64,000 bases of DNA from positions 32,001 to 96,000 of the forward strand of contig OY730476.1 of NCBI GenBank assembly GCA_963422735.1. The letters are read 5' to 3'. This document shows, one piece after another, positions 5,248 to 28,262 of the stretch. This DNA is from Candidatus Latescibacterota bacterium. GTDB taxonomy: Bacteria > Latescibacterota > UBA2968 > UBA8231. Positions within the stretch are counted from its first letter, which is position 1. Every line of letters starts with the position of its first letter. The position numbers and the translations under genes are program-made. The notes beneath the pieces are model-generated. The model did not search any database. It saw only the letters and a program-made list of their open reading frames with translations, and was not told the origin of the DNA.

Positions 5248-5334
5248 GTTAGTGGTTAGTGGACAGCGGACAGTGAATAGTGCCCCGTCGCCCCTAGCAT
5301 GGGGAGCAGACGGGAACTAACCACTAACCACTAA
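5248..5334. repeat. Heptamer-repeat inverted element in the pgi leader
   Basis: GTTAGTGGTTAGTGGACAGCGGACAGTGAATAGTG, then an inner CCCGTC/GACGGG hairpin, then ACTAACCACTAACCACTAA. Confidence 0.8.
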
Positions 5335-11200: not shown

Positions 11201-11832
11201 GTCCTGCGCCAGTCGCTGAGGATTGGGTCGGGCGACTGCTCGGCGTAGCGGCGGCACCACGAGCGGGCGAGATGCTTTTTCTCGAGTAGGTATTCCAAGA
11301 TCTGTTCGAGATAGCGGCGCGGCCATTCGGCTAAGGTGCGCTGCAAAGCCCCTTTGTCCGGGTCGGAGTCGCGCAATCGGGCTAGGGACTCTAGAGTTTG
11401 GCGCACGGCTTGGTGCCGAAGCTGCACGGCATCTACTTCTTCCAAGACCGCAAAGGCCGGGTCCACATCCGCTTCAATGGGATACTCGCGCAACAGGGCT
11501 GTGCAGAAGGCGTGGATGGTGGAAATGCGCGCCGCGGGCAGGTCTGCGCGGATTTGCCGCAGGCGCTGCCGCTCTGGTTCGGGCAGATCCTGATCGAGGG
11601 CGTTGGACAGCCGCCGGGCGATGCGCTCGCGCATTTCCGCCGCGGCCTTTTGGGTAAACGTGATGGCCAGCACTTGGCGCACGCCGATTTCGGGATGCAG
11701 GCGCAACAGCTCGATGTAGCGCTCGACTAGCGTTGCGGTCTTGCCCGCGCCGGCGCTGGCGGTGACCGCGATATTGCGCTGGCTGTCGAGGGCCATGCGC
11801 TGGACTTCAGTTAGGGGGACGGTGCGCTTCAC
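8230..11832 (-). CDS. addA: AddA-like UvrD helicase-nuclease
   Basis: ASAGAGKT, IDEFQDT, VGDPKQSIYSFR, TVHAAKGLEF, LLYVACTRA and C-terminal VDYKTG nuclease. Confidence 0.9.
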   Translation of the reverse strand: MKRTVPLTEVQRMALDSQRNIAVTASAGAGKTATLVERYIELLRLHPEIGVRQVLAITFTQKAAAEMRERIARRLSNALDQDLPEPERQRLRQIRADLPAARISTIHAFCTALLREYPIEADVDPAFAVLEEVDAVQLRHQAVRQTLESLARLRDSDPDKGALQRTLAEWPRRYLEQILEYLLEKKHLARSWCRRYAEQSPDPILSDWRRTQQTAGAPAYRALLADAHFTEMLAELAELAPLTDARDSAVERLNPLCDFMRRLSQTPPPDEAIEILSRLAKGLLTNGKPLSGNRLGKKSNWEEAALARVRELVPALGRCLAPHADRLGLELGAADERAAAVLPALSRVFLRADARCESSKGNGNMLDMDDLLEKSHQLIAANADIRQRLAQHYRFALIDEFQDTDPLQWEIIRSLASPDGQMAGDKLFIVGDPKQSIYSFRAADVTVFARVRDAIAEANAAHKRDSRPFCDDGELLDASPTERLGALVMGENFRTLAQPIAFVNALFPKFMQAVPDEPFQVGYDPLVGCRSTSVSEGSVELLLLPPDDSRDAIEAALREAEFVARRLSHLLAGSDLQVTEEEGLRPPVPGDIALLLRRRRNLFAYEDALRAGGIPFQVVGGRGFYQRQEIYDLANILRALCNSGDDIALMGALRSPYFGLSDNALYALAAPHGGRLAEHLFDASRQQRLAPADQEAAADAVARLQCWRELRDRVPLVRLLHTILEDTGAWGFLCYGERGEQAIANVHKLLDLAREFRGPLADFAARLDLLTNEEQQEGEARLDADALNILTVHAAKGLEFPIVVVPDLAARFNLQNSAPVLIDAEKGIGLRTLDPEQGYKKTSSFIRSLINRNASRRQHAEEKRLLYVACTRARDHLLLGGALTDKHFAADLDAAADCLSWICGSLALTEADLARGAKAVAGVPSPLPIYTDPSAFPASATTDRRAEPAFLALDVAPAQAAEPVLDLLSPLDDPQARPELAVSELVLFAADPAAHHRQYVLGLPPWPLGQADAPRRRSILFGKLAHAGLEALSNSPDADPAALAADLVAAATLPVASYRASFERELATLLRRCHQSPLAARWLAHAEARTEVRFTLSLERGLVHGVVDYMGRGADGLWELVDYKTGHHANTAEAVQHYRLQLGIYALCLQALHPDQDEYRTTLYFADLDEAHLTRFTRADLAATRTRLDDLVAQIVENSG

Positions 11833-14800
11833 GACAAGTCCCTCATGCGTTGGGGATCGAGGCGGCAGCTTTGTTGATAAGGGCAGTGCGGGCAGATTTT
11901 GGCCGGGTCGTGGGCGGTGACGCGAAACACCCCACGGCGCATGGCTCGCGCATAGGAGAGGACGAAGCCGCGCACGGCGTCGAGGCGCTGGCGATACGCT
12001 TCGTGGTCGTACAGGCCGTAGCGACCGCTGGCGACATAGGCCGCATTGCGATGTGTGGCATCGGCAAATAGCCCGCTGCGGCCGCAGTCCTCTAGGTCGC
12101 GGAGCATCAGGTACGCCGCCCCGGCCCCTTCTCGCAGCCCGATTTCCTCGAACAGGGATTCAGCCGCTAGTAAGTAGAGCGGGAGCTGGAGGTTGAGACC
12201 GATGTCAATATCGGCTACGGAGGGCATGCGGCCGGTCTTGTAGTCGAAGACGACGAAGCGGCCATCGGCCGTGCGGTCGATGCGGTCGATCTTGCCGGAA
12301 AGCCGCACTTCGTCCCCGGTTTCTGGGTCGCCGATGGCATAGAGCGTGGTGGTCGATTGCTGGTCGCCCTCCCCCATGCCGGGGTAGCTGCCAAAGCTCA
12401 GCTCAAAATGGGTCGGCACGGCCGGATTAGCCGCGGCCGATTGCAGGCGGAGGAAGCAGGGCAAGATGCCCTCGCGCTCCCCGTCGTCAGAGCCGAGCAG
12501 ACGCTCTAATTCTCGATCCCAGAAAAAGCCCGTAAGCCTCATTCCCTCGGCGATTTGGCGGCCTCGGTGCCGCAGTTCCGCGATATTTGTGGCCAAGTTT
12601 TCCGTGCGTTCAGCCGCTTCGCCCCGGTCCGCATAGAAGTGGTAAAGAATACGGTGGACGAGGTTGCCGCGCTTGAGCGCCGAGTCGTCGGCTCCTGGGT
12701 CGTGGAGGGGCTGGAGGTTGAGCAGTTCTTGGGCAAAAAACCGGAAGGGACAGCGGCCGTACAGCTCTAGTTGAGTCGCGGAAAAAGAATGACCCGCGCC
12801 GAGGCGGGTGCGCAGCGCGTCGAGTAGCGGAGCCTCGTCGAGTACGCCTTCATAGTGGCCGAAACCCTCGGAACTCGTGCGCCGTTCAGCAATGTGCAAG
12901 CCGCGCACGAGATGTGCAGTGGCGCGGTCGTCGAGCCGCACGGCTTGGTTGTAGAGTGCGAGGGCGTCGTGTGCGCGCTCGGATTCGCGCACAGCGCACA
13001 GGCCGTGCCCCAATGCAAGGTGCAACTCGGCAAGGGTCCCCGGTGTGGATCCGACCTCGCACGGGGAAGGCTGCGGAGCGAGCAGGCCGTCTAACTCGGC
13101 GAAAAAGGGAGAGGGGGCAAGCATCTTGCTGCCCGACTGCTGGGGATAGAAGACGCCGAGGCCGCGGCGCGGTGTGCATACGGCGCGGTAGAACAGCAAG
13201 CGCTCGGCGGCGGTGGTGGCGTCCTCGTCTAAGTTCAGGGCGCGGCGCTGGGTTTCTTCGAGGAAAATATCGGCTGGCGGCAAGCGGGGAAATTCGCCTT
13301 GCACCAACCCGCCGAGGAAGAGGTAATCGCAGGGTGTGCTGCCCGCTGCGGCGAGGTCGGTCACCTGAATGCCAGCGCGCGTTGTGGTGGGGACATGCGC
13401 TTGAAAGATGGCGTCGCGCAGCAGGTCGGCGAACTGGCTCAGGGTGCGGGGTTGCAGGGCTGCGGCCGGCGCGCACAATTCGTCGAGTAGCTCCAAAAAG
13501 CACGCCACTGCCCGGCCGTCTTCTACCGTCCCATCTGCGAGCGCGTCTTCTACGCCGAGGGCGCCGAGGGCGTGGAGCAGATGGTGGCGGAAGGAGGGTA
13601 GGTCCTGTCGGCTCTCCAAGGGCTGGAGCAAGTCAAAGAGTGCGGTTAGGCTGGCTCGTAGGGGCTGGAGGGCCTCCCATTCGTCGCGCAGGGACTCGCG
13701 CCAAGTGGGGAAATCGTCGATTTCTTCGGAGACTGGCTCTCCTTCTCGTTCTAACTCGCGCTCTATGTAGGCGAAGGTGTCGTCAATGGCTGCGAGCCAT
13801 GCGCTGCGCCCGGTTGGCGGCGAAATGTTGCGGGTCCACGCAGCGAAGTCTGCGGCGGAAAGCGTGCTGGTCTGGCGCGCGAATGCGTAGCGCAGTCGCA
13901 CCAAGGGCAAGCTGAGCAAGCGGAAGAGCGCGGCGCGGCTGTAGCGCTCTAGCACCGCGTTGATGAGCGCGAAGATGGTGTTCATGGCGGGCGCCGTGGC
14001 AAGGGGCCGCCCACGCGCGAGATAAAAAGGCAGGCCGTGGCGCGGCAGCACTTCCTCCACCAGCGCGGCATAGTCGTCGAGGTTGCGGAAGCCAATGCGG
14101 ATCTGCGCTAGTGCTACCCCTTGCTCTTGATGCAACTGGCGGACGCGGCGGGCCATCGCTGCGACTTCACCGACCCGGTCTGGGCAGGCGACCCGCTCTA
14201 CGGGCGCATCGAGGGAGTCGCGGCTGTGGGTGAAGAGACGGCCGGCAAACGCGGCGGCTGGGTATTGCTCGGCGGTGCTGTATTCGACGCGGACAGCGCG
14301 GGCGCGGAGGAATTCGTACAGGGAGCGCGTGCGGGCAAAAAAACTTGGGGCCTCGGGAATGTAGTCGAGCAACGCGATGGATTCTGGAACGAGGGCTAGC
14401 AGCTTGTCCAGCACGGGCAAAAAAGGTGTGGGCACTTCTACAAAGCCGCAGAACACGAGCAGGCTAAGGCCGGGGAAGTGCCGGGCGAGAACCGAGCGGT
14501 CGAGGTAGGTATCCACGGCGGCAAAACGCTCGCGGCTCCCGCTCCAGCCAGCCGCAAGGCGCTCTAGGTAGGTTGCATAAAGAGCCTGCAATTCCGCGCT
14601 GCGCTGAGTTGTTCCCCGCAGGTCACTCGGCTGGGTGCCCGTTTCCTCCAACCGGCGGAACAACTGAGTTAGCCCCCGGCTCAGCCGCTCGGGTCGGCTG
14701 CTGTAATAGGGTGCGCTGGCTGCGAGGGCGTCTTCGACTAAGAGCCGGTGGGCGCTGAGGGGCAGGGTTGGTCGCTGGCCGGGGCAGAGGCTATAGAGGA

Positions 14801-15017
14801 TGTCGGTAAAACTGTTTAGGTCGAGGGCCAAGTGCCCGGTGAGCAGGTGGCCGGCGCGGATGAGCTGCCGCCGCATGAGCTGGGCTTGGAAGTGCGATGG
14901 AAAGAGCCAGAGAAAGGACTCGCTGTCGCTTGCGTCGAGACGCGCCAAACAGCGCTCGTACGCGGGCGATGCCTTGTCGGGATGGGCTGGGCCGTAGATG
15001 AGGGTCAGTTCGCCCAT
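11829..15017 (-). CDS. addB: AddB-like PD-(D/E)XK nuclease subunit
   Basis: SATQLELYGRCPFRFF, GKIDRID, FDYKTG, QLPLY and C-terminal CPHCPYQQSC; coupled to addA. Confidence 0.85.
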   Translation of the reverse strand: MGELTLIYGPAHPDKASPAYERCLARLDASDSESFLWLFPSHFQAQLMRRQLIRAGHLLTGHLALDLNSFTDILYSLCPGQRPTLPLSAHRLLVEDALAASAPYYSSRPERLSRGLTQLFRRLEETGTQPSDLRGTTQRSAELQALYATYLERLAAGWSGSRERFAAVDTYLDRSVLARHFPGLSLLVFCGFVEVPTPFLPVLDKLLALVPESIALLDYIPEAPSFFARTRSLYEFLRARAVRVEYSTAEQYPAAAFAGRLFTHSRDSLDAPVERVACPDRVGEVAAMARRVRQLHQEQGVALAQIRIGFRNLDDYAALVEEVLPRHGLPFYLARGRPLATAPAMNTIFALINAVLERYSRAALFRLLSLPLVRLRYAFARQTSTLSAADFAAWTRNISPPTGRSAWLAAIDDTFAYIERELEREGEPVSEEIDDFPTWRESLRDEWEALQPLRASLTALFDLLQPLESRQDLPSFRHHLLHALGALGVEDALADGTVEDGRAVACFLELLDELCAPAAALQPRTLSQFADLLRDAIFQAHVPTTTRAGIQVTDLAAAGSTPCDYLFLGGLVQGEFPRLPPADIFLEETQRRALNLDEDATTAAERLLFYRAVCTPRRGLGVFYPQQSGSKMLAPSPFFAELDGLLAPQPSPCEVGSTPGTLAELHLALGHGLCAVRESERAHDALALYNQAVRLDDRATAHLVRGLHIAERRTSSEGFGHYEGVLDEAPLLDALRTRLGAGHSFSATQLELYGRCPFRFFAQELLNLQPLHDPGADDSALKRGNLVHRILYHFYADRGEAAERTENLATNIAELRHRGRQIAEGMRLTGFFWDRELERLLGSDDGEREGILPCFLRLQSAAANPAVPTHFELSFGSYPGMGEGDQQSTTTLYAIGDPETGDEVRLSGKIDRIDRTADGRFVVFDYKTGRMPSVADIDIGLNLQLPLYLLAAESLFEEIGLREGAGAAYLMLRDLEDCGRSGLFADATHRNAAYVASGRYGLYDHEAYRQRLDAVRGFVLSYARAMRRGVFRVTAHDPAKICPHCPYQQSCRLDPQRMRDLS

Positions 15018-15023
15018 TAAGAG

Positions 15024-15121
15024 CAGTGGTTAGGGGTTAGTGATCAGTGGTTAGGGGTTAGTGATCAGTGGTTAGGGGTTAGTGATCAGTGGTTAGTGAT
15101 CAGTGATCAGGGGTTAGGGGT
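15024..15121. repeat. Tandem array of 14 heptamers (YAGKGRT), including three perfect 21-bp units
   Basis: (CAGTGGT TAGGGGT TAGTGAT)x3 CAGTGGT TAGTGAT CAGTGAT CAGGGGT TAGGGGT. Confidence 0.95.
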
Positions 15122-19040: not shown

Positions 19041-19371
19041 AAGCGGGTTTGAGCCGCCGCCGCGATAGCAAAGAGTTGGGCCGCATGATATAGCAGTCCT
19101 AAATGACTTGAAAATATAATATAGAACGTTCATTGGCTCTGTCTCTTCTGTCTATAAGAAGTCATCTCCCGCGAAGGCGGGCTTCACCGAGAGGCGTGAC
19201 ATATAGTATTGAATGACGTAGGATTGCTATATGCTTCCTTTTATTGAGCCTTGACACAGCACTCGTTTTAAGAGCGTGAATAGGTTTACCGCGTAAGCAC
19301 TAGGTAGTTAGGGAGATGGGTCGTTTGGGCACAACGAATAACGGACTTTCCTAGAATAAGGACTGTTTAAT

Positions 19372-19392
19372 TAGTGGTTAGTGGTTAGTGGT
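19372..19392. repeat. 3 x TAGTGGT heptamer upstream of res
   Basis: Three perfect copies of the same unit seen at 5248 and 15024. Confidence 0.85.
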
Positions 19393-19618: not shown

Positions 19619-22600
19619 TTGACTGAATTCTTTGAACAGCCCATTCTCAACTCGCCTTACGAGCGCCCGAACCGGCATTGGGAACTGGACGAGACCGGGC
19701 AGCCGACCCAGCAGATCGTCGAACACCGCCGGCAGGCCGAGTTTATCACGCCGATCCCACAGCCTAAGAAGCGCAAGGGAAAAGAGCAACAAGCCGCGCT
19801 GGTATTCGACGCGGCGGCGCAGAAGCTCGAAACCGCCGGCCAGCAATACGACCTGACGGCCATCATCAACGGGGTTCGTCAGCAGGTTGATCGCTGGCGC
19901 GACCTACCGAATCCGAGCCAATGGCAGGTGACCCCGGAGACCGCTCGGCTGCTCCGGCACTGGCGGGACCACCGCTTCAGTGGGACTCGGCCCTTCTTCT
20001 GCCAAGTCGAAGCGGTAGAGACCGCTATATGGCTCACTGAAGTTGCGCCTAGAACGCGATCCGGCAAGAGCTTCCTCGACCACCTAGCGAACGCCAACAA
20101 CGACGCCAATCCAGACCTGCCCCTGCCGCGGTTGGCACTCAAGTTGGCGACCGGCACCGGCAAGACCACGGTTATGGCCATGTTGATTGCTTGGCAGACC
20201 GTCAACGCGGTGCGCCGGCCTCAGAGCCGCGGCTTCACGCGCGGTTTCCTCGTAGTCACGCCCGGGATCACCATCAAGGACCGCCTGCGGGTGCTGCAAC
20301 CAAACGATCCGGACAGTTACTACCAGAGCCGCGAGTTGGTTCCAAGCGACATGCTCCCCGACTTGGAAAAGGCCAAGATCGTCATTACCAACTACCACGC
20401 CTTCAAGCGGCGCGAACGCATGGAGCTTTCCAAAGGCGGGCGATCTTTGCTTCAGGGACGGGGCGAGACGCTCTCGACCTTGGAGACCGAGGGGCAAATG
20501 CTGCAACGGGTGATGCCCGAACTCATGGGCGTAAAGAACGTCTTGATCCTCAACGACGAAGCGCACCACTGCTACCGCGAGAAGCCGGGCGAGGGGGAGG
20601 AAGGTGCGCTCAAGGGCGATGACAGAAAGGAAGCCGAAAAGAACAGGGAGGCGGCGCGGCTGTGGATTTCCGGGCTGGAAATCGTCGGCAGCAAGCTCGG
20701 CATCAACCGGGTGATGGACCTCTCGGCAACGCCGTTCTTTTTGCGCGGGTCGGGCTACGCCGAAGGTACGTTGTTCCCCTGGACGATGTGCGACTTCTCG
20801 CTCATGGACGCCATTGAATGCGGCATCGTCAAACTGCCCCGCGTGCCGGTGGCCGACAACATCCCCGGCAGCGACATGCCCAAGTTTCGCAATCTTTGGG
20901 AACACATCCGCACCAACATGCCGAAGAAGGGGCGGGGCAAGGCCAAGGAACTCGATCCTCTCAGTTTGCCCGTGGAGCTACAGACCGCACTGGAAGCCCT
21001 GTATGGGCATTATCGGAAGACCTTCGCGCTTATGCAGGAGGCGGGCATTGGCGTGCCGCCGTGCTTCATTGTGGTCTGCAACAACACCTCGACCTCCAAG
21101 TTGGTGTACGACTACATCTCCGGCTTCCACCGCGAGAACGAGGATGGTTCAAAGAAACTTGAGAATGGTCGCCTAGCGCTGTTTCGCAACTTTGACGAAC
21201 AGGGCAACCAGTACCCACGGCCTCGCACCCTGCTAATCGACAGCGAACAATTGGAGTCTGGCGACGCGCTCGACAAGAACTTCCGCAACATGGCGGCAGA
21301 TGAGATCGAGCGTTTCCGCCGCGAGATTATCGAACGTACCGGCGACCGTCGTCAGGCCGGAAATATCACCGACCAAGACTTGCTGCGGGAAGTGATGAAT
21401 ACAGTCGGCAAACCGGGGCGGCTAGGGGATTCGATTCGCTGTGTGGTGTCGGTCTCTATGCTCACGGAAGGGTGGGATGCGAACACCGTCAGCCATGTGT
21501 TGGGCGTGCGGGCCTTTGGGACGCAGTTGCTTTGCGAGCAGGTCGTTGGCCGTGCGTTGCGCCGGCAGTCCTACGATCTCAACGAAAAAGGTTTGTTCGA
21601 TGTCGAGTACGCCGATGTCTTGGGCATTCCATTCGACTTTACGGCCAAGCCCGTTGTGGCCCCGACGAGACCGCCGCGAGAGACCGTTCAGGTGCGGGCC
21701 ATGCGACCTGAACGGGATGCGCTGGAGATTTGTTTTCCTCGGGTAGCCGGGTATCGAGTGGAATTGCCGGAAGAGCGGCTCAAAGCCGAGTTCAACGAGG
21801 ACTCGGTGCTGGAACTCACGCCCGATCTGGTTGGTCCGTCGAGAACGAGGAACCAGGGGATTATCGGCGAGGGCGTGGATCTCAATCTGGTTCACACCAA
21901 CGACCTGCGGCGCTCGACCCTACTTTTTCATCTGACCCATCGGTTGCTCTACACCAAGTACCGCGATCCGGGCGAAGAGCCCAAGCTCTATCTTTTCGGC
22001 CAGCTCAAGCGCATCGCCAAGCAGTGGCTCGATGGCTGCCTCGTCTGCAAGGGCAGCACCTATCCGGCCCAACTCATGTACCAGGGACTAGCCGACACAG
22101 CCTGCGGGCGCATCGCCGCCGCCATCACGCAAGCGAAAATCGACCATCATCCGGTCAAAGCGGTGCTCGATCCGTACAACTCCGTTGGTTCAACAGCCCA
22201 CGTGAATTTCAACACGACCAAGGCCAGCCGCTGGCAGACCGACGCCCGCCGTTGCCACATCAACTGGATCATCCTCGACAGCGACTGGGAAGCGGAGTTT
22301 TGCCGCGTCGCCGAATCCCATCCGCACGTCAAAGCCTACGTCAAAAACCACAATCTCGGCTTGGAAGTGCCCTACCGTTGCGGGTCGGAAACGCGGACGT
22401 ATATCCCGGACTTTATCGTCCGCATTGATGATGGCGGTGGCGATGAGGATCTGCTGCATCTGATCGTCGAGATCAAGGGCTATCGGGGGGAAGACGCCAA
22501 GGACAAGAAGACGACCATGGACACCTATTGGGTGCCTGGCGTGAATCATCGCGGGGACTACGGGCGCTGGGCTTTTGCCGAGCTTACCGATGTGTTCGAG

Positions 22601-22654
22601 GTGGAAGCTGCGTTCAATCGTTTGGTTGAGCGGTTCCGGTTGAGGACCGGGTAG
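19619..22654 (+). CDS. res: Type III-like restriction subunit (Res; SF2 helicase plus PD-(D/E)XK nuclease)
   Basis: KLATGTGKT, NDEAHHCY, SATP, MLTEGWD and YIPDFIV...VEIKG. Confidence 0.88.
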   Translation: MTEFFEQPILNSPYERPNRHWELDETGQPTQQIVEHRRQAEFITPIPQPKKRKGKEQQAALVFDAAAQKLETAGQQYDLTAIINGVRQQVDRWRDLPNPSQWQVTPETARLLRHWRDHRFSGTRPFFCQVEAVETAIWLTEVAPRTRSGKSFLDHLANANNDANPDLPLPRLALKLATGTGKTTVMAMLIAWQTVNAVRRPQSRGFTRGFLVVTPGITIKDRLRVLQPNDPDSYYQSRELVPSDMLPDLEKAKIVITNYHAFKRRERMELSKGGRSLLQGRGETLSTLETEGQMLQRVMPELMGVKNVLILNDEAHHCYREKPGEGEEGALKGDDRKEAEKNREAARLWISGLEIVGSKLGINRVMDLSATPFFLRGSGYAEGTLFPWTMCDFSLMDAIECGIVKLPRVPVADNIPGSDMPKFRNLWEHIRTNMPKKGRGKAKELDPLSLPVELQTALEALYGHYRKTFALMQEAGIGVPPCFIVVCNNTSTSKLVYDYISGFHRENEDGSKKLENGRLALFRNFDEQGNQYPRPRTLLIDSEQLESGDALDKNFRNMAADEIERFRREIIERTGDRRQAGNITDQDLLREVMNTVGKPGRLGDSIRCVVSVSMLTEGWDANTVSHVLGVRAFGTQLLCEQVVGRALRRQSYDLNEKGLFDVEYADVLGIPFDFTAKPVVAPTRPPRETVQVRAMRPERDALEICFPRVAGYRVELPEERLKAEFNEDSVLELTPDLVGPSRTRNQGIIGEGVDLNLVHTNDLRRSTLLFHLTHRLLYTKYRDPGEEPKLYLFGQLKRIAKQWLDGCLVCKGSTYPAQLMYQGLADTACGRIAAAITQAKIDHHPVKAVLDPYNSVGSTAHVNFNTTKASRWQTDARRCHINWIILDSDWEAEFCRVAESHPHVKAYVKNHNLGLEVPYRCGSETRTYIPDFIVRIDDGGGDEDLLHLIVEIKGYRGEDAKDKKTTMDTYWVPGVNHRGDYGRWAFAELTDVFEVEAAFNRLVERFRLRTG

Positions 22655-22695: not shown

Positions 22696-24438
22696 ATGCC
22701 TTGGGATAGCGATAGCTTGTTGCAGCAACTCAAGCTTGGCGAGGACAGCCGCGTTGAGTTCAAAGAAGCCGGGTTCACCGGCGACCGCGTCCGTGCGCCT
22801 CATCGGGACGCTATCGCCGACGAGTTGGCCGCTTTGGGCAACACCATCGGCGGCACCTTGATCTTCAGCGCGTCCGACGCTGGTGAGGTGCGGTCGATGA
22901 ACCGCGAACAGATGGATGCGTTGGAAGCCTTCGTCAGCGAGATTTGTGCAGACAGCATCCGTCCTCCGTTGGCGTTTGTCACCCAACGGTTGGCTCTGCC
23001 GGACGGTTCGTTTGTGCTGGTTGTCGAAGTCGAACAAAGTGCGCTGGTCCACAAGAGTCCCGGGGGATACCTTTCCCGACAAGGCAGTGCCAAGCGAGAG
23101 ATGTCGTCGGAGGCATTGAACCGTCTGTTTCAGCAACGGGGGCGTTCTGGCCTGCTCGGCCCTGACGAAGCGATCGTTGCCGGAACCGGATCCAACACGC
23201 TCGATGAAACCCTAACAGATCGTTTCATGAGTTCGCGCGCCACCGAGCCCACAATCGTCCAACTCACAAAGCTGGGGTTGGTGCGGGAGGATGACAGCGG
23301 TGCGATCCGCGCAACGGTCGCCGGGGTGTTGCTTTGCTCCGGACGCCCGGATGAGCACATACGCGGCGCGATGATCGAAGCAGTTCGCTATCGCGGCACG
23401 GTGCTTGGCCGAGCGAGTCAGCACGACGCGGCGTCCATCACCGGCCCGTTGGACCAGCAGATCCGCGATGCGGTCAACTTCGCTAGACTCAACACGCGGG
23501 TAGCGGCGCGCAAGGCCCCGGGGCGAGTAGAGACCCCGCAATTTAGTCCGCGAGCAGTATTTGAGGCCATCGTCAACGCGGTGGTCCACCGCGACTACTC
23601 AGTGGAGAACGCAAAGATACGGCTCTTCATCTTCGACGACCGCCTTGAGTTGTACTCGCCGGGTGCTCTGCCCAACACGCTGCCCATCGAAGCCATGCGC
23701 AATCGACAAGCCACCCGCAATGAAACGCTCGCGTCCATCCTCCGTATGCTCGCGGTAGGGGATATTGCCGGTGCGGGTGACCGGCAGTATTTCTTGGAGC
23801 AACGCGGTGAAGGGGTTCCGATCATCTACGAGCAGACCCGGGAGCTGACAGGACGCGATCCAGAGTACGAACTGCTCGGCGGCGCGGAACTGCGGCTGAC
23901 GATACCTTCTGCCCGTCCGCCGGTAACGGGCATCGAAGGGGAAGTGTTGGTGTCTGCCGCCGGTCAGCCGCTTGCAAGTGCAAAGGTCGTTGCGCTGTAC
24001 CCCAACAAGACTTGGATGGAGGGGGAAACCAATGCGTTTGGTCGGGTCCATTTCGGGTTTCACTCGAAACTTCCCATCACCGTTTTCTGCGCGGCACCGG
24101 GACACACTGCCCACGTGGAGCGGGATTGGCACCCGCCGGAATCGCTCTCGGTGCAGCTTGAACCGCTGCCAATGGGTGGATCAACGGTGTTCACGGAGGG
24201 GACAGGTCACTTGCCCAATTTGACCGGGCGGCTAGATCCGATCCTCGACGATCTCGACCGCATGTACCTGTACGCGACAAACGTCGCCATTGACGAAGGC
24301 AAGCAGCAACCCGTGCGTTTCAAACTGAATCAGCCCTTGCAGCTTACAGATGTCAACGGGTTTGAATGGATCGTGCGGTTCATTGAGATGATCGGAAAGT
24401 CGGCACTGTTGGAATACGAATCCCCGTCCCCCGATTAA
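22696..24438 (+). CDS. AlbA_2 (Schlafen-like) plus RecG-C/HATPase_c_4 protein with extra C-terminal beta domains
   Basis: GEDSRVEFKE, ALGNTIGG, EAIVNAVVHRDY, DRLELYSPG and EQRGEG. Confidence 0.8.
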   Translation: MPWDSDSLLQQLKLGEDSRVEFKEAGFTGDRVRAPHRDAIADELAALGNTIGGTLIFSASDAGEVRSMNREQMDALEAFVSEICADSIRPPLAFVTQRLALPDGSFVLVVEVEQSALVHKSPGGYLSRQGSAKREMSSEALNRLFQQRGRSGLLGPDEAIVAGTGSNTLDETLTDRFMSSRATEPTIVQLTKLGLVREDDSGAIRATVAGVLLCSGRPDEHIRGAMIEAVRYRGTVLGRASQHDAASITGPLDQQIRDAVNFARLNTRVAARKAPGRVETPQFSPRAVFEAIVNAVVHRDYSVENAKIRLFIFDDRLELYSPGALPNTLPIEAMRNRQATRNETLASILRMLAVGDIAGAGDRQYFLEQRGEGVPIIYEQTRELTGRDPEYELLGGAELRLTIPSARPPVTGIEGEVLVSAAGQPLASAKVVALYPNKTWMEGETNAFGRVHFGFHSKLPITVFCAAPGHTAHVERDWHPPESLSVQLEPLPMGGSTVFTEGTGHLPNLTGRLDPILDDLDRMYLYATNVAIDEGKQQPVRFKLNQPLQLTDVNGFEWIVRFIEMIGKSALLEYESPSPD

Positions 24439-24923: not shown

Positions 24924-27900
24924 ATGGCAAAACGAAAATCACCTAAGACGGTCGCAACTCTGCGGCACGAGGACGCAGCGCGTAAGAATATCCCCACGGC
25001 CGAGTATCAGGCGGTGATGGAGGAGGACGACCGGAATCCCATTGAGGTCGCGTACGAGCGGCGCAACCGGGACCTCGACCCGCAGCTTGTTTGGCGCGGC
25101 AAGGACGAGCAGAACGAGTCGGACCTCGTGGTGCAAGCACCGCCGCTGTTCATTCAGGAGAAGGTGCATCCGCAGGTGCTGATTGACGATCTGCGGCAGC
25201 GGAGCAAGGAGACGGAGAAGGAGGATGGCGAATCGGGCTTCCAGACGGATCTGTTCGCGGATTTCAACGGCCTGCCGAGTGCAGACGCCCAGACTGAGTT
25301 CTACCAGCACGACGCCAACTGGTCGAATCGGATGATTCTTGGGGACAGCTTGCAGGTGATGGCGTCTTTGGCCGAACGCGAGGGCCTGCGCGGCAAGGTG
25401 CAGTGCATCTATCTCGACCCGCCCTACGGCATCAAGTTCAACTCGAACTTCCAGTGGTCAACCACCAGCCGCGATGTGAAGGACGGCAAGGCCGAGCACA
25501 TCACCCGCGAGCCGGAGCAGGTCAAGGCGTTTCGGGATACGTGGCGGGACGGGATTCATTCGTACCTGACGTACTTGCGGGATCGGCTGACGGTGGCGCG
25601 GGATCTGTTGACGGAGAGTGGATCGATCTTTGTGCAGATTGGGGATGAGAATGTGCATCGGGTAAGGGCGGTGATGGATGAGGTGTTTGGGGAGGGGAAT
25701 TTTGTTGGGTTGATTACTTTTATGAAGGCAACAGCACAGACTTCCAAGCTGCTATCAACAGCATCAGATTACTTGATTTGGTACGCTCGGTTGAAGCCAC
25801 AGGCAAAATATCGCGCACCATTGCTAAAAAAAGTAATTGGTCGGGCCGGAGCTACGGGCTACTCGAACATAGAAGCGTCTGATGGAACTATCTCTCGTCG
25901 TATAAGCCAAGAGGAACGGGAAAATCCTGCTCTTATTTCTACAGATGAGAGAGTGTTCGCATTAGACCATATACGTGGCACAAGGACTCCGAATCCTGCT
26001 GACCTTAAAGGTTATACATTTCAAGGCACAACCTTTAATTCCGACGGACGCTATTGCTGGAAAACCGACAAAAAGGGTCTCGACAACCTTGACAAGAGCT
26101 GGCCGGTTGTAAAAGCAGGAAACCAATTATCGTACAAGCGATATTTCCACGATGATTGCCTATCCCGTTCGACAAACTGGGCGATACCGCTGGTATTGCT
26201 ACGGATAAAGTCGATACGTCGTGGAGACGAAACCAAAGTCATCCAACGCTGCATCCTCATGACCACAGACCCTGGCGACCTCGTCCTCGACCCCACCTGC
26301 GGCTCCGGCACCACCGCCTACGTCGCCGAGCAGTGGGGCCGCCGCTGGATCACCATCGACACCTCCCGCGTCGCCCTCGCACTCGCCCGCGCCCGCATCA
26401 TGGGCGCACGCTATCCCTGGTATCTGCTCGCCGACAGCCCCGAAGGCCGGCGCAAGGAAGCGGAAATCAGTGGCCAGGCGTCAGTGACCGGTGGTCAGTT
26501 TAACGACAACTCGCCGACCACTGGTCACTCTCACTCCATCCGCCAAGGCTTTGTCTATCAGCGCGTCCCCCACATTACGCTCAAGTCCATCGCCAACAAC
26601 GCCGAGATCGACGTAATCTGGGAGAAGTACGAGGAGCGGCTTGCGCCGCTCCGTGAACAGTTGTCAGCCCACCGGCCACAGACCACTGACCACCGGCCAC
26701 TCGAAGAATGGGAGATACCGCGTGAGCGTCCAGAAGACTGGCCACCGGCCACTGAACCACTGATCACTGCTTTCTGGAAGCAGCGCATCGCCCGACAAAA
26801 GGAAATCGACGCTTCCATCGCCGCCAAAGCCGACTATGAATACCTCTACGACAAGCCCTACGAAGACAACAAGAAAGTCCGCGTGGCTGGCCCGTTTACG
26901 GTGGAAAGCCTGTCGCCGCACCGCCTGTTGGGCGTGGACGAGAACGACGAACTCATCATTGATAAAGCTGCCGAAGACAAACCCGACTACGGCGAAAAGC
27001 AGGACTTTGCCGAGATGATCCTCGATAATCTCAAAACCTCTGGCGTCCAGCAGGCGCACAAAGACGACAAAATCAACTTCAGCTCACTCGTCCCCTGGCC
27101 CGGCCACCTCGTCTGCGCCGAAGGCCGGTTTGATAGTGGTCAGTGGCCAGTGGTCAGTGGCCAGAAGAAGAACGCACAAGCCACTGGTCACAGACCACGG
27201 GCTACTGAACACCGCGCCGGCATTTTCATTGGCCCGGAATTCGGCACCGTCTCCCGTCCCGACCTCGTGGAAGCAGTCCGCGAGGCCGCCGACGCCGGCT
27301 TCGACGTTTTAATCGCCTGCGCCTTCAACTATGACGCCCACGCCTCGGAGTTCAACAAACTTGGCCGCGTCCCCATCCTCAAGGCGCGCATGAACGCCGA
27401 CCTGCATATGGCCGACGATCTCAAAAACACCGGCAAAGGCAACCTCTTCGTCATCTTCGGCGAGCCGGATATTACAGTGACCAGTGGTCAGTGGCTGGTG
27501 GCCAGTAACGGGAGAATGATTGCGAATTATGAGCACGTTAAAGAGTTATCAGGACTTGGAAGTCTGGAAGAAATCAATCGAACTGGCAGAGATGGTCTAT
27601 CGAATCTCTGCCAAGTTTCAGCCGGAAGAAAAATTCGGCATAACCAGCCAAGTGCGGAGGGCGGCGGTATCCGTGGCAGCGAATATCGCAGAGGGAGCAG
27701 AGCGTCACGGGACCAAGGAATTTCTCCAATTTCTGGGGATAGCCAGCGGTTCTCTAGCAGAGACGGAGACCTTTCTGATTCTGGCGCAGAAGCTGGGAAT
27801 GGCCCCAGCCGAGCAGATCAACCCCCTGCTATCGCAGGCGGCGGACGTTGGACGGATGCTCAATGGGCTCAAGCGCTCGCTGCGGTCCAGGAACTGACTC

Positions 27901-28262
27901 ACGCGGACTTCCCGCTGTCCCTGACCACAGGCCACTGGTCACAGGCCACTGTCCACGGCGTGGACGTATTTCATCCGAACACCGGCGAAATCCGCAGCGA
28001 CAGCGCCGACGGCATCGCCTGCTGGTTCGTCGATACCGACTACAACGAGGAAAGCTTCTTCGTGCGCCACGCCTACTTCCTCGGCGCCAACGATCCGTAC
28101 AAGACGCTCAAGACGACGCTCAAAGCCGAGATCAATCGAGAAGCTTGGGAAACCCTCAAAAGCGACACCTCCCGGCCTTTCGCCAAGCCGCAGTCGGGCC
28201 GCATCGCGGTGAAGGTGATCAATCACTTAGGGGACGAGGTGATGAAGGTGTTTCGGGTGTGA
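24924..28262 (+). CDS. mod: Type III-like adenine DNA methyltransferase (Mod) carrying in-frame repeat insertions and a nested gene
   Basis: YLDPPYG catalytic motif, VLDPTCGSGTT SAM motif and C-terminal IAVKVINHLGDEVMKVF. Confidence 0.9.
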   Translation: MAKRKSPKTVATLRHEDAARKNIPTAEYQAVMEEDDRNPIEVAYERRNRDLDPQLVWRGKDEQNESDLVVQAPPLFIQEKVHPQVLIDDLRQRSKETEKEDGESGFQTDLFADFNGLPSADAQTEFYQHDANWSNRMILGDSLQVMASLAEREGLRGKVQCIYLDPPYGIKFNSNFQWSTTSRDVKDGKAEHITREPEQVKAFRDTWRDGIHSYLTYLRDRLTVARDLLTESGSIFVQIGDENVHRVRAVMDEVFGEGNFVGLITFMKATAQTSKLLSTASDYLIWYARLKPQAKYRAPLLKKVIGRAGATGYSNIEASDGTISRRISQEERENPALISTDERVFALDHIRGTRTPNPADLKGYTFQGTTFNSDGRYCWKTDKKGLDNLDKSWPVVKAGNQLSYKRYFHDDCLSRSTNWAIPLVLLRIKSIRRGDETKVIQRCILMTTDPGDLVLDPTCGSGTTAYVAEQWGRRWITIDTSRVALALARARIMGARYPWYLLADSPEGRRKEAEISGQASVTGGQFNDNSPTTGHSHSIRQGFVYQRVPHITLKSIANNAEIDVIWEKYEERLAPLREQLSAHRPQTTDHRPLEEWEIPRERPEDWPPATEPLITAFWKQRIARQKEIDASIAAKADYEYLYDKPYEDNKKVRVAGPFTVESLSPHRLLGVDENDELIIDKAAEDKPDYGEKQDFAEMILDNLKTSGVQQAHKDDKINFSSLVPWPGHLVCAEGRFDSGQWPVVSGQKKNAQATGHRPRATEHRAGIFIGPEFGTVSRPDLVEAVREAADAGFDVLIACAFNYDAHASEFNKLGRVPILKARMNADLHMADDLKNTGKGNLFVIFGEPDITVTSGQWLVASNGRMIANYEHVKELSGLGSLEEINRTGRDGLSNLCQVSAGRKIRHNQPSAEGGGIRGSEYRRGSRASRDQGISPISGDSQRFSSRDGDLSDSGAEAGNGPSRADQPPAIAGGGRWTDAQWAQALAAVQELTHADFPLSLTTGHWSQATVHGVDVFHPNTGEIRSDSADGIACWFVDTDYNEESFFVRHAYFLGANDPYKTLKTTLKAEINREAWETLKSDTSRPFAKPQSGRIAVKVINHLGDEVMKVFRV
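26468..26535. repeat. In-frame heptamer hairpin A in mod
   Basis: AGTGACCGGTGGTC (26483-26496) pairs with GACCACTGGTCACT (26516-26529), with one G-U pair. Confidence 0.8.
26668..26769. repeat. In-frame heptamer tracts B in mod (3'-arm type only)
   Basis: CCCACCG GCCACAG ACCACTG ACCACCG GCCACTC and GCCACCG GCCACTG A ACCACTG ATCACTG. Confidence 0.75.
27134..27214. repeat. In-frame heptamer hairpin C in mod
   Basis: TAGTGGT CAGTGGC CAGTGGT CAGTGGC, an 18-nt loop, then GCCACTG GTCACAG ACCACGG GCTACTG. Confidence 0.85.
27474..27952 (+). mobile_element. Intervening-sequence-like insert bounded by 33-nt heptamer inverted repeats
   Basis: Arms 27474-27506 and 27920-27952 give 25/33 Watson-Crick plus 3 G-U pairs; they enclose the four-helix-bundle gene. 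Mobility is inferred. Confidence 0.65.
27529..27897 (+). CDS. Four-helix-bundle protein (23S rRNA IVP / Avd-like), nested in the +1 frame of mod
   Basis: SYQDLEVWKKSIELAEMVY...F.PEEKFGITSQVRRAAVSVAANIAEG...EFLQFLGIASGSLAETET...RMLNGL is the full family signature; GGGAGA upstream. Confidence 0.92.
   Translation: MSTLKSYQDLEVWKKSIELAEMVYRISAKFQPEEKFGITSQVRRAAVSVAANIAEGAERHGTKEFLQFLGIASGSLAETETFLILAQKLGMAPAEQINPLLSQAADVGRMLNGLKRSLRSRN

Follow-up and report, generated by a model that had tools for sequence, protein, structure and literature searches.

The known cases of in-frame palindromic DNA translated as part of a protein come mainly from Rickettsia, the STRRs of cyanobacteria are tandem 7-nt repeats dispersed in genomes, and phase-variable mod genes of pathogens (phasevarions) carry simple-sequence repeats. 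Among the 23S rRNA IVSs, short forms without an ORF exist in Salmonella and others. For Coxiella, PMC4990558 describes tandem heptameric repeats of variable number beside an ORF, and insertion sites of IVSs that are conserved across species. The Rickettsia palindromic elements (RPEs) are characterized in PMC10969869 as being in frame in ORFs, translated and judged to be compatible with protein fold and function.

The stretch of DNA analysed here (the window, 64,000 nt from Candidatus Latescibacterota bacterium) contains a type III-like mod gene in which a nested gene cassette is bracketed by heptamer arrays (YAGTGRY, or RYCACTR in the 3' arms) and in which further patches of the same heptamers lie in frame. 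From our point of view, the best explanation, to which we assign a probability of about 0.5, is that these patches are satellites of the IVS-like cassette with its heptamer arms, translated but without an ORF of their own, and that they are tolerated in loops in the manner of RPEs. The likeness to the 23S rRNA IVSs, as described in PMC4990558, consists in a terminal inverted-repeat stem that replaces a small native loop and in an IVP-family ORF that is optional; the ORF-bearing IVS form (S23p; Coxiella, Leptospira) and the short form would correspond to the mod cassette and the short hairpins, respectively. In contrast to an IVS, which is cut by RNase III out of the rRNA helix that houses it, the patches reside in a protein-coding ORF and are translated in frame, and the arms of the mod cassette are long YAGTGRY arrays. 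With the RPEs, the patches share the in-frame position, the translation and, at sites B and C, a predicted location in surface loops, whereas RPEs are about 150 bp long, form defined families and occur in many unrelated genes of one genome, and the patches are confined to one gene family and travel with the gene between phyla. A literature search found no description of in-frame heptamer hairpins in mod, and the new part is the ORF-less in-frame hairpins at five further mod sites together with their cis link to the cassette.

The host gene and its surroundings comprise the following features:
19619-22654: Res gene with ResIII and RE_endonuc domains, upstream of mod
22696-24438: gene with SLFN/AlbA_2 and HATPase_c_4 domains, upstream of mod
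24924..28262, + strand: type III-like mod ORF, an open frame of 1112 aa that hosts all patches and the nested cassette
26150..26235, + strand: garbled mod segment in which the conserved NWxDT...KxYVVQT motif is distributed over three frames, compared with P0031 and P0046

The N6_N4_Mtase match of Mod (PF01555, Pfam, 2e-28, residues 159-486) and the neighbouring Res helicase-nuclease mark it as a type III restriction-modification Mod, and its closest solved chains are the type III Mods 6k0w and 4zcf. The codon score of mod is 0.093 vs a median of 0.204. Since the conserved motif of the garbled stretch, which corresponds to about residues 413-437 in the catalytic region, is spread over three frames, the window's copy may be dead or mis-assembled; intact relatives carry the same patches.

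Patches A, B and C are all in frame in mod and translated, as had been pointed out in a first-pass annotation of this DNA, and the open reading frame includes the peptides ISGQASVTGGQFNDNSPTTGHSHS, SAHRPQTTDHRPL, WPPATEPLIT and DSGQWPVVSGQKKNAQATGHRPRATEH. Their parts are:
26468..26495, + strand: patch A, 5' arm of YAGTGRY units, encoding ISGQASVTGG, with the paired stem starting at 26483
26510..26530, - strand: patch A, 3' arm (RYCACTR on the sense strand; match 26517-26530), encoding SPTTGHSHS and pairing with the 5' arm
26668..26702, - strand: patch B1, orphan 3'-type array of 5 units, encoding AHRPQTTDHRPL
26734..26769, - strand: patch B2, orphan 3'-type array, encoding DWPPATEPLIT
27134..27164, + strand: patch C, 5' arm of 4 units, encoding DSGQWPVVSGQ
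27180..27207, - strand: patch C, 3' arm, encoding ATGHRPRATE

YAGTGRY dimers with at most one mismatch occur 33 times in the window vs 0.49 expected (shuffle maximum 3, n=100), with 16 of them inside 26482-27951; a three-unit detector found 12 arrays in the window, 8 of them in mod, while 20 shuffles gave 0-1. That the patches are built of the same unit family as the arms around the nested gene, as first proposed, is borne out, and architecture and polarity agree as well: A and C are inverted same-unit arrays of the architecture (YAGTGRY)n-loop-(RYCACTR)n in 5'-then-3' polarity and fold into strong hairpins. Hairpin A (26483-26529) reaches -26.3 kcal/mol (z -2.99; 1/200 shuffles fold equally well) and hairpin C (27136-27212) -42.4 kcal/mol (z -6.2; 0/200 shuffles fold as well). 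B consists of two single-arm tracts, both of the RYCACTR type on the sense strand; the array detector places the start of the second at 26734 and not at 26741 as initially annotated, and no hairpin was found in the B region (26655-26775; z -0.5, 60/200 shuffles fold as well). Immediately upstream of B1, its 5' partner has shrunk to CAGTTGTCAG, and the B2 peptide is equal in length to the native WPEEVKRIHAD. The patch hairpins in mod amount to 60-110 nt of heptamer arrays. Judged by eye only, the patch loops are purine-rich (GGAA/GAAG) like the cassette leader.

The cassette itself lies further downstream in the same gene:
27475..27509, + strand: left heptamer arm
27529..27897, + strand: nested 23S_rRNA_IVP gene (122 aa, four-helix-bundle, Avd-like) in the +1 frame of mod
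27917..27958, - strand: right heptamer arm

The nested gene matches PF05635 (Pfam, 1.4e-38) and is the sole 23S_rRNA_IVP match in the 4.95-Mb genome. Across the Mod family, the cassette occupies one fixed turn and the host frame stays open across it, with 0 stops in 160-174 codons across the cassette junction in 7/7 mod homologues examined. Internally deleted cassettes are present at the IVP site of L005, L112/113 and P0081, and a domain search of the cassette and its neighbouring genes gave no transposase in or beside it. Among 12 IVP loci of relatives, YAGTGRY arms were found at 5, precisely those nested in Mod, by a detector that recognises the YAGTGRY unit family only, and the other 7 may have arms made of other units.

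Mod homologues number more than 600 matches, and in the 108 that were compared the arrays keep to five fixed linkers that tolerate indels (N, A, B1, B2 and C). A genomic link with four-helix-bundle genes, as suggested at the outset, holds in cis, where patches are present in 16/28 Mods with an insert vs 2/58 without (non-arm arrays in 14/25 full-insert, 2/3 partial-insert and 2/58 insert-less Mods), and where arrays were detected at 8/8 genome loci with IVP in Mod vs 2/73 without. At the genome level the co-occurrence is absent and neither the presence of IVP genes nor that of heptamer arrays is predictive of patches, as G048 (13 PF05635 matches, 61 array matches) and G050 (0 and 129, respectively) both have a patch-less Mod. 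Six phylogenetically independent pairs are supported, with about 3.8 in which patch goes with IVP, 0.1 against and 2.1 without difference; with 6 pairs only, the sign test is underpowered and has a median p of 0.125. The flanks of 79/81 mod loci are array-free. Where two arrays of opposite strand neighbour each other in a Mod homologue, the order is 5'-YAGTGRY then RYCACTR in 13/13 pairs. Other alleles possess the full B1 hairpin or its 5' arm alone, and in L112/L113 and L036 the B1 5' arm pairs with the B2 arm across the conserved EEWEIPRE segment, i.e., arms flank native sequence at B; at C, the arms of L074, compared with L008, perhaps flank a native loop. Between patch-bearing alleles, Mod is about 60% and IVP 47-57% identical, with the same sites and heptamer consensus, and mod, cassette and patches travel together between distant bacteria, across phyla. 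At N, A, B and C, cargo is absent from all relatives.

In other Mods, the patch positions hold non-heptamer insertions of 28-94 aa. An AF2 model of P0034, which is of moderate quality (120 alignment rows, mean pLDDT 56.5) and poor at N, A and the IVP site, places B at the tip that joins helices 549-572 and 591-618 (pLDDT blocks 84-91) and C in the turn that connects strands 712-720 and 727-735 (blocks 79 and 68, respectively). A model of the window's own Mod (18-row alignment, mean pLDDT 42.5) was set aside. The earlier proposal that the patches lie in variable loops is supported, and the patch sites are permissive variable linkers and indel hot spots, with B as a predicted helix-hairpin tip and C as a predicted beta-turn.

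According to our preferred explanation, each patch belongs to the hairpin family that brackets the cassette, with (YAGTGRY)n in its 5' arm, (RYCACTR)n in its 3' arm and a short loop rich in purines between them; it stands in for a short turn or linker segment of Mod and is translated within the protein. The carrier would be a family of type III mod alleles that recombine and are transferred horizontally, with the cassette at one fixed turn and hairpins at up to five other fixed indel-tolerant linkers. The patches may derive from the cassette or may have spread via a process common to both, a relation that would parallel the short ORF-less IVSs beside ORF-bearing IVSs in 23S rRNA, and they would persist through tolerance rather than through a need of Mod for them. 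However, a simple course of hairpin insertion followed by loss of cargo does not predict the equal-length replacement at B2 or the arms around native segments.

The allele most informative on the origin of the patches is L009, which shares the A, B2 and C patches with the window's mod and is 97-99% identical to it in the 3' half. As the same peptides occur in L009 and its genome (G041) has no other strict heptamer array, the patches are inherited with the mod allele and not produced by this genome. This partly contradicts the initial expectation that the peptides would be missing from the Mods of genomes lacking heptamer repeats. In G041, G042 and G043 the sole strict triple-heptamer match genome-wide adjoins the Mod-nested IVP. 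The window's own genome holds 210 arrays of the heptamer family, about 30-35 of which are hairpins of the same polarity as the patches; 35 opposite-strand array pairs (gap <=60 nt) are in YAGTGRY->RYCACTR order and 0 in the reverse order within 200 nt. Given this supply, it could be argued that the patches are local products of dispersed STRR-like repeats that landed in mod by chance, but we regard this as very improbable: L009 largely refutes it, related genomes with 94-129 array matches have patch-less Mods (G050/L007), and patches are also found in other lineages. Moreover, a genome scan of the kind proposed in the first-pass annotation did recover arrays within coding sequences, but only 15/210 lie in a convincing CDS, 6 of those 15 in mod; the remaining nine comprise eight minimal matches of 21 nt and a 189-nt array within a dubious 118-aa ORF, and arrays in coding sequences are thus essentially a feature of mod. 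Intergenic hairpins also have C-rich/G-rich apical stems, unlike the A-rich loops of the coding hairpins, and STRRs are described as intergenic tandem arrays; in the literature searched, that description does not extend to paired hairpins that lie in frame and are linked to an IVP cassette, as the mod patches are. The intergenic hairpins further show a strand asymmetry of G.U pairs.

One could also imagine that the cassette seeds arrays locally, i.e., that paired YAGTGRY arms are written into permissive sites in its vicinity by a process linked to IVP, in one polarity and sometimes around native sequence, either by hopping of internally deleted cassettes or by templated repeat addition at breaks or nicks. 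This scenario, which we consider unlikely, would accommodate that patches go with the cassette in cis and not with IVP genes or arrays elsewhere (G048, G050), the fixed polarity in the genome and in Mods, the single-arm tracts, the arms flanking native sequence, the internally deleted cassettes and the likeness by eye between patch loops and cassette leader. However, no enzyme for such a process was seen in or beside the cassette, there are heptamer-rich genomes without any IVP gene (G002-G004, G012, G050) and genomes with IVP genes but without arrays (G030, G034), and among 114 insert-bearing Mods the sites farther from the cassette are not progressively less occupied (C 36%, B1 32%, N 21%, B2 18%, A 16%). 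In addition, patch units resemble the arms within the same gene no more closely than arms in other genes (8/15), and there is hence no sign of concerted evolution. If, improbable as we hold it, the cassette is the source of arrays, the patches would be fresh satellites of an active element and bacterial heptamer repeats the footprints of that element.

Compared with L009, the window's mod shows two exact 21-nt (three-unit) indels, at 26669 (B1) and at 27183 (C). As the array indels are 21 nt, the frame keeping of the patches is a matter of ordinary purifying selection, in agreement with the first reading of their frame-neutrality. CACTnn junctions form stop triplets in 747/864 cases in non-mod arrays vs 2/6 in mod 3' arms, and stop-giving CACT(R)(R) units are replaced in mod arrays. 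Tandem repeats of a unit length not divisible by three that lie in a type III mod gene and differ in unit number between close relatives resemble simple-sequence contingency loci, in which slippage by 7 nt would turn the mod frame on and off in the manner of phasevarions. Nevertheless, this seems most unlikely, as the mod arrays are short (3-5 units), imperfect and paired as hairpins, both indels seen keep the frame, the frame is open across the junction in all homologues examined, and no length variants appeared among the RNA-run contigs, which come mostly from other alleles. In addition, a frameshift at the patches would truncate Mod and not switch it, given their position in the 3' half.

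A further possibility is that the hairpins have a selected function in cis, at the level of the mod transcript or of its DNA, namely as putative docking sites of the nested protein or RNase III-type processing sites that tune expression. The heptamer consensus and the arm complementarity are kept at the same sites in diverged alleles, hairpins and IVP gene go together in cis, 91% of the cells of the site C alignment pair and, by analogy, the stems of ORF-bearing 23S rRNA IVSs are RNase III substrates according to PMC4990558. Nonetheless, we judge such a role to be rather unlikely. Each site is filled in only 18-41 of the 114 insert-bearing Mods, so none is required, and with each patch present in 16-36% of these alleles an obligatory binding-site role is argued against. 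In the 11 sequences of site C, covariation falls short of significance (27/500 shuffles reach the score, and 195/500 reach the observed number of double-change pairs), and the pairing follows from the invariant AGTG/CACT cores. The sense RNA folds worse than the antisense in 11/13 patches, and the window's B comprises two unpaired orphan arms. Finally, the patches are the indel-prone parts of the gene, with 42 gap columns in about 212 nt of patches vs 15 in 1302 elsewhere between the window's mod and L009. Their substitution rate, which resembles that of the remaining 3' half (5/170 vs 51/1302), favours neither side.

As for turnover, the IVP state requires 15-16 changes on trees of mod, which are uncertain because the gene recombines internally, with swaps of target-recognition domains. 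Within each of the close pairs L074/L008 and L110/L030, both hairpins and cassette differ, and the boundaries in L074/L008, L110/L030 and L005/L007 are devoid of target-site duplications. Since no cargo, target-site duplication or transposase was seen, mobility is deduced from presence and absence alone. The earlier idea of non-autonomous mini-elements is therefore retained as far as ORF-less hairpins of the same family are concerned, but not in the sense of MITEs, which were rejected for want of target-site duplications at the checked boundaries and of a transposase in or beside the cassette. Patch-less L008 retains an 'ALTTSW' stretch that resembles an arm remnant; because of it, gain and loss of the patch look alike in this pair.

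Taken as satellites of the cassette, the patches would represent an RPE-like phenomenon that is built of heptamer repeats, cis-tied to an IVS-type cassette and spread across phyla in a defence gene. Together, the full and the partly deleted cassettes, the full hairpins and the single arms constitute a natural series that could show how cassettes and bacterial heptamer arrays arise and decay, and the one-way polarity of the hairpins constrains any proposed mechanism. Hairpins A and C provide defined RNA/DNA ligands for asking what IVP/Avd-like proteins bind. Peptides of the type SGQW... and TTDH... mark repeat-derived loop insertions, which annotators and structure predictors should treat as dispensable.

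With respect to transcripts, four RNA or possibly-RNA runs were compared as contigs, most of whose pieces are 90-95% alike and hence represent other alleles. Contigs from these runs, mostly from other alleles, gave no evidence of patch excision and none that could be used on expression or cleavage. Splicing at the 27124/27213 joints was considered and rejected, as the joints hold a 40-nt native linker and thus reflect patch-less alleles. One run of uncertain kind, X11, contains a near-identical 254-nt contig that spans A and B1.

The mod ORF belongs to a type III-like restriction-modification locus and carries, nested in it, a 23S_rRNA_IVP (IVP) gene; the 4.95-Mb genome has no other PF05635 match. 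We refer to this gene and its flanking heptamer arms as the cassette, to the cassette at its fixed mod site as the insert, and to all other YAGTGRY/RYCACTR arrays inside mod genes as patches.

Features of the mod locus (window coordinates)
19619-22654, ResIII/endonuclease gene, preceding mod
22696-24438, SLFN/AlbA_2 and HATPase_c_4 gene, preceding mod
24924-28262, plus strand, mod ORF (1112 aa, N6_N4_Mtase domain)
26468-26495, plus strand, patch A, 5' arm
about 26510-30, minus strand, patch A, 3' arm
26668-26702, minus strand, patch B1
26734-26769, minus strand, patch B2
27134-27164, plus strand, patch C, 5' arm
27180-27207, minus strand, patch C, 3' arm
27475-27509, plus strand, left cassette arm, YAGTGRY array
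27529-27897, +1 frame of mod, nested IVP gene (122 aa, PF05635 1.4e-38)
27917-27958, minus strand, right cassette arm, YAGTGRY array

All patches of the window lie within the mod ORF and upstream of the IVP gene, and the features listed in the first-pass annotation are real. The tell-tale peptides are present in the mod translation, and YAGTGRY dimers are in excess (0.49 expected in the window, 33 observed, 16 of them in the patch-cassette stretch of mod). A (z -2.99; 1/200 shuffles equally good) and C (z -6.2; 0/200) fold as hairpins, and the B region gave no hairpin fold in the same test (z -0.5). In a literature search, heptamer hairpins lying in frame in mod were not found described. Related arrangements are described for the Coxiella IVS, which is 428 nt long and has a terminal stem of 28 bp that RNase III cleaves and an S23p ORF that variable-number tandem heptameric repeats adjoin, the same source stating that IVSs take the place of small tetraloops at conserved sites (PMC4990558); a MITE review mentions RPEs as in-frame insertions in many Rickettsia genes (PMC10969869).

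From our point of view, the patches are inherited as components of mod alleles that form a mobile family, and are tolerated in loops. With a 3-unit detector (one array in a shuffled megabase against 48 in the real one), 210 arrays were found in the own genome, only 15 of them in convincingly coding ORFs. Six of these 15 are in mod. Of the remaining nine, one is 189 nt long and lies in a 118-aa ORF of doubtful status, and the other eight are 21-nt matches of minimal length. Homologues of Mod are very widespread, and cassette-bearing ones occur across phyla. Among 81 loci (80 genome loci and the window), eight have an IVP gene inside Mod and all eight also have arrays there, compared with 2/73 Mods without an IVP match (L011, L016); the roughly 12-kb flanks contain arrays at 2/81 loci. 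The Mod of locus L009, recorded as Arenicellales, shares patches A, B2 and C with the window and is 97-99% identical over the 3' half of mod. In its genome, as in those of loci L036 and L048, the sole strict triple-heptamer match adjoins the Mod-nested IVP gene. Conversely, genome G048 has 13 PF05635 and 61 array matches and G050 has 0 and 129, yet both have Mods without cassette or patches. Taken together, these comparisons show that the patches belong to the mod allele and are not produced by the own genome. Among 40 relatives, G002-4 and G012 are array-rich without IVP, and G030 and G034 bear IVP without arrays.

When the arrays in an alignment of 108 Mod ORFs, drawn from 80 genome loci, 27 metagenome loci and loci of relatives, were placed on the residues of the window's Mod, they fell at the cassette arms and at five sites.

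Recurrent patch sites (window Mod residues)
about 88-110, site N, found in homologues
510-540, site A
576-594, site B1
604-618, site B2
735-763, site C

Arrays outside the arms occurred in 14/25 full-insert, 2/3 partial-insert and 2/58 insert-less Mods, and in 2/22 with the junction uncovered. In 120 database proteins scored with our own peptide motifs, a sample biased to insert-bearers (the query carried the insert), 114 insert-bearing Mods had patches at A in 18, B1 in 36, B2 in 20, C in 41 and N in 24 (16-36% per site), and insert-less ones in 0/5. Insert-bearing alleles are scattered on trees (Fitch parsimony, 16 changes for 23/81 tips on the C-terminal tree; 15 changes in IVP state on an IQ-TREE tree of 76 tips), and the very close pairs L074/L008, L110/L030 and L005/L007 differ in both cassette and hairpins. 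Target-recognition regions are swapped between mod alleles, and this recombination within the gene weakens the trees. In a phylogenetically corrected test on six supported pairs, the patch went with IVP in about 3.8, against it in 0.1 and did not differ in 2.1 (median p 0.125). The association in cis is consistent in direction but formally not established. Of the readings available, the proposal that the patches are versions of the element lacking cargo is the best, its basis being architecture and this cis association only.

In L074 versus L008 and L110 versus L030, about 16 codons (DILDAEDSQIQVKVN) at the cassette site have given way to the arms, which is no simple interruption of a native turn, and even the native sequence on the right side, CAGGTCAAGGTCAACGG, is similar to the heptamer arm CAGGTCACTGTCCACGG. 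In P0024, a Mod named from Thioflavicoccus mobilis, site C holds about four tandem copies of the entire hairpin peptide GDQWPV.GGRQDPSP.TGHQPPTT (~100 extra residues), an extreme expansion of patch C.

At the patch positions, other Mods carry insertions of non-heptamer sequence, 28-94 aa long (residue 607, ten loci; 602, one; 519-530, two; 588-593, three; 738-750, two), and the ten at 607 make the B2 site a general insertion hot spot. The latter insertion (47-94 aa; L002, L006, L019, L021, L033, L042, L043, L055, L060, L103) is conserved as ...ALN..LGR.Y.L..VP..P.DPW; L042 and L103 carry a cassette, the other eight do not. Solved Mod relatives cover the methylase core only. In an AF2 model of P0034, which has no patches (mean pLDDT 56.5), sites B1 and B2 lie on either side of the tip that joins helices 549-572 and 591-618 (blocks 84-91), and C takes the place of the turn from strand 712-720 to strand 727-735 (blocks 79 and 68). 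Site A comes after helix 504-514, in low-confidence coil. Model confidence is also low at N and at the IVP site; the latter lies between predicted strands 815-819 and 827-836. A position in permissive loops is supported for B and C and plausible for A, N and the IVP site.

The suspicion that frame-neutral patches reflect selection was borne out, although as ordinary purifying selection on the ORF, of which frame-keeping is a product; a special mechanism is not needed. The only two patch indels between window and L009 (26669 and 27183) are each exactly 21 nt, i.e. three units, between direct repeats. On the RYCACTR strand of non-mod arrays, 747/864 CACTnn junctions are TAA, TGA or TAG, so a canonical 3' arm is not readable through. 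The mod 3' arms use CACCGG, CACAGA and CACGGG in place of stop-giving units; six CACT junctions are left, two of them TGA, with the mod frame open. It is likewise open across the cassette (0 stops in 160-174 codons, 7/7 loci). The L009 copy has a 15-nt tandem duplication (GIACW twice) at about 9090, aligning with window 28011 in the conserved C-terminal part. At window 26150-26235, the near-invariant NWxDT...KxYVVQT motif is split among three reading frames and the main frame is still open with unrelated residues WAIPLVLLRIKSIRRGD; either the gene is decaying in the window or the assembly has indels here.

Most relatives have well-folding hairpins at N, A, B1 and C despite differing sequences, and in L112/113 and L036 a 5' arm at B1 is paired with the 3' arm of B2 over the conserved EEWEIPRE segment. 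Covariation at site C was not significant, and the 91% of paired cells is due to invariant cores. In 11/13 patches folding is better for the antisense strand than for the sense RNA, which we read as a by-product, since replacing the stop-giving T in 3' arms would yield it; the cassette arms showed no strand bias (15 to 10). Occupancy of 16-36% per site and orphan arms argue against an obligatory role, and facultative occupancy weakens the suggestion that the patches may be binding sites for the nested protein.

All 35 array pairs with gaps of <=60 nt in the own genome run 5'-YAGTGRY then RYCACTR, without a reverse-order pair within 200 nt, as do 13/13 pairs in Mod homologues. Since the reverse complement of such a hairpin keeps the arm order, this polarity stems from the element itself or from how it originated, and not from transcription direction.

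The own genome has ~30-35 intergenic heptamer hairpins (e.g. C1:117030-117122, 236630-236776, 4338053-4338146), which all show this arm order (35 to 0), often occupy the entire spacer between two genes (gaps 3-17 nt) and have C-rich/G-rich apical stems versus the A-rich coding loops in mod. Many are strongly strand-asymmetric (e.g. -81.9 vs -51.5 kcal/mol; C1:236630-236776 and 2269212-2269437 are examples), their arms consisting of different unit variants, TAGTGGT and CAGTGAT, so that G.U pairs arise in just one of the strands; where the neighbouring genes are co-directional, it is usually the antisense strand that folds better. Further heptamer tracts in the window are an intergenic hairpin at 5250-5333, a (TTAGTGG)3 tract at 19371-19392, ~230 nt upstream of the res gene, and a 14-unit array with a 21-nt super-period CAGTGGTTAGGGGTTAGTGAT at 15024-15121, immediately following the stop codon of a PD-(D/E)XK nuclease gene (1061 aa; 11829-15017, minus strand).
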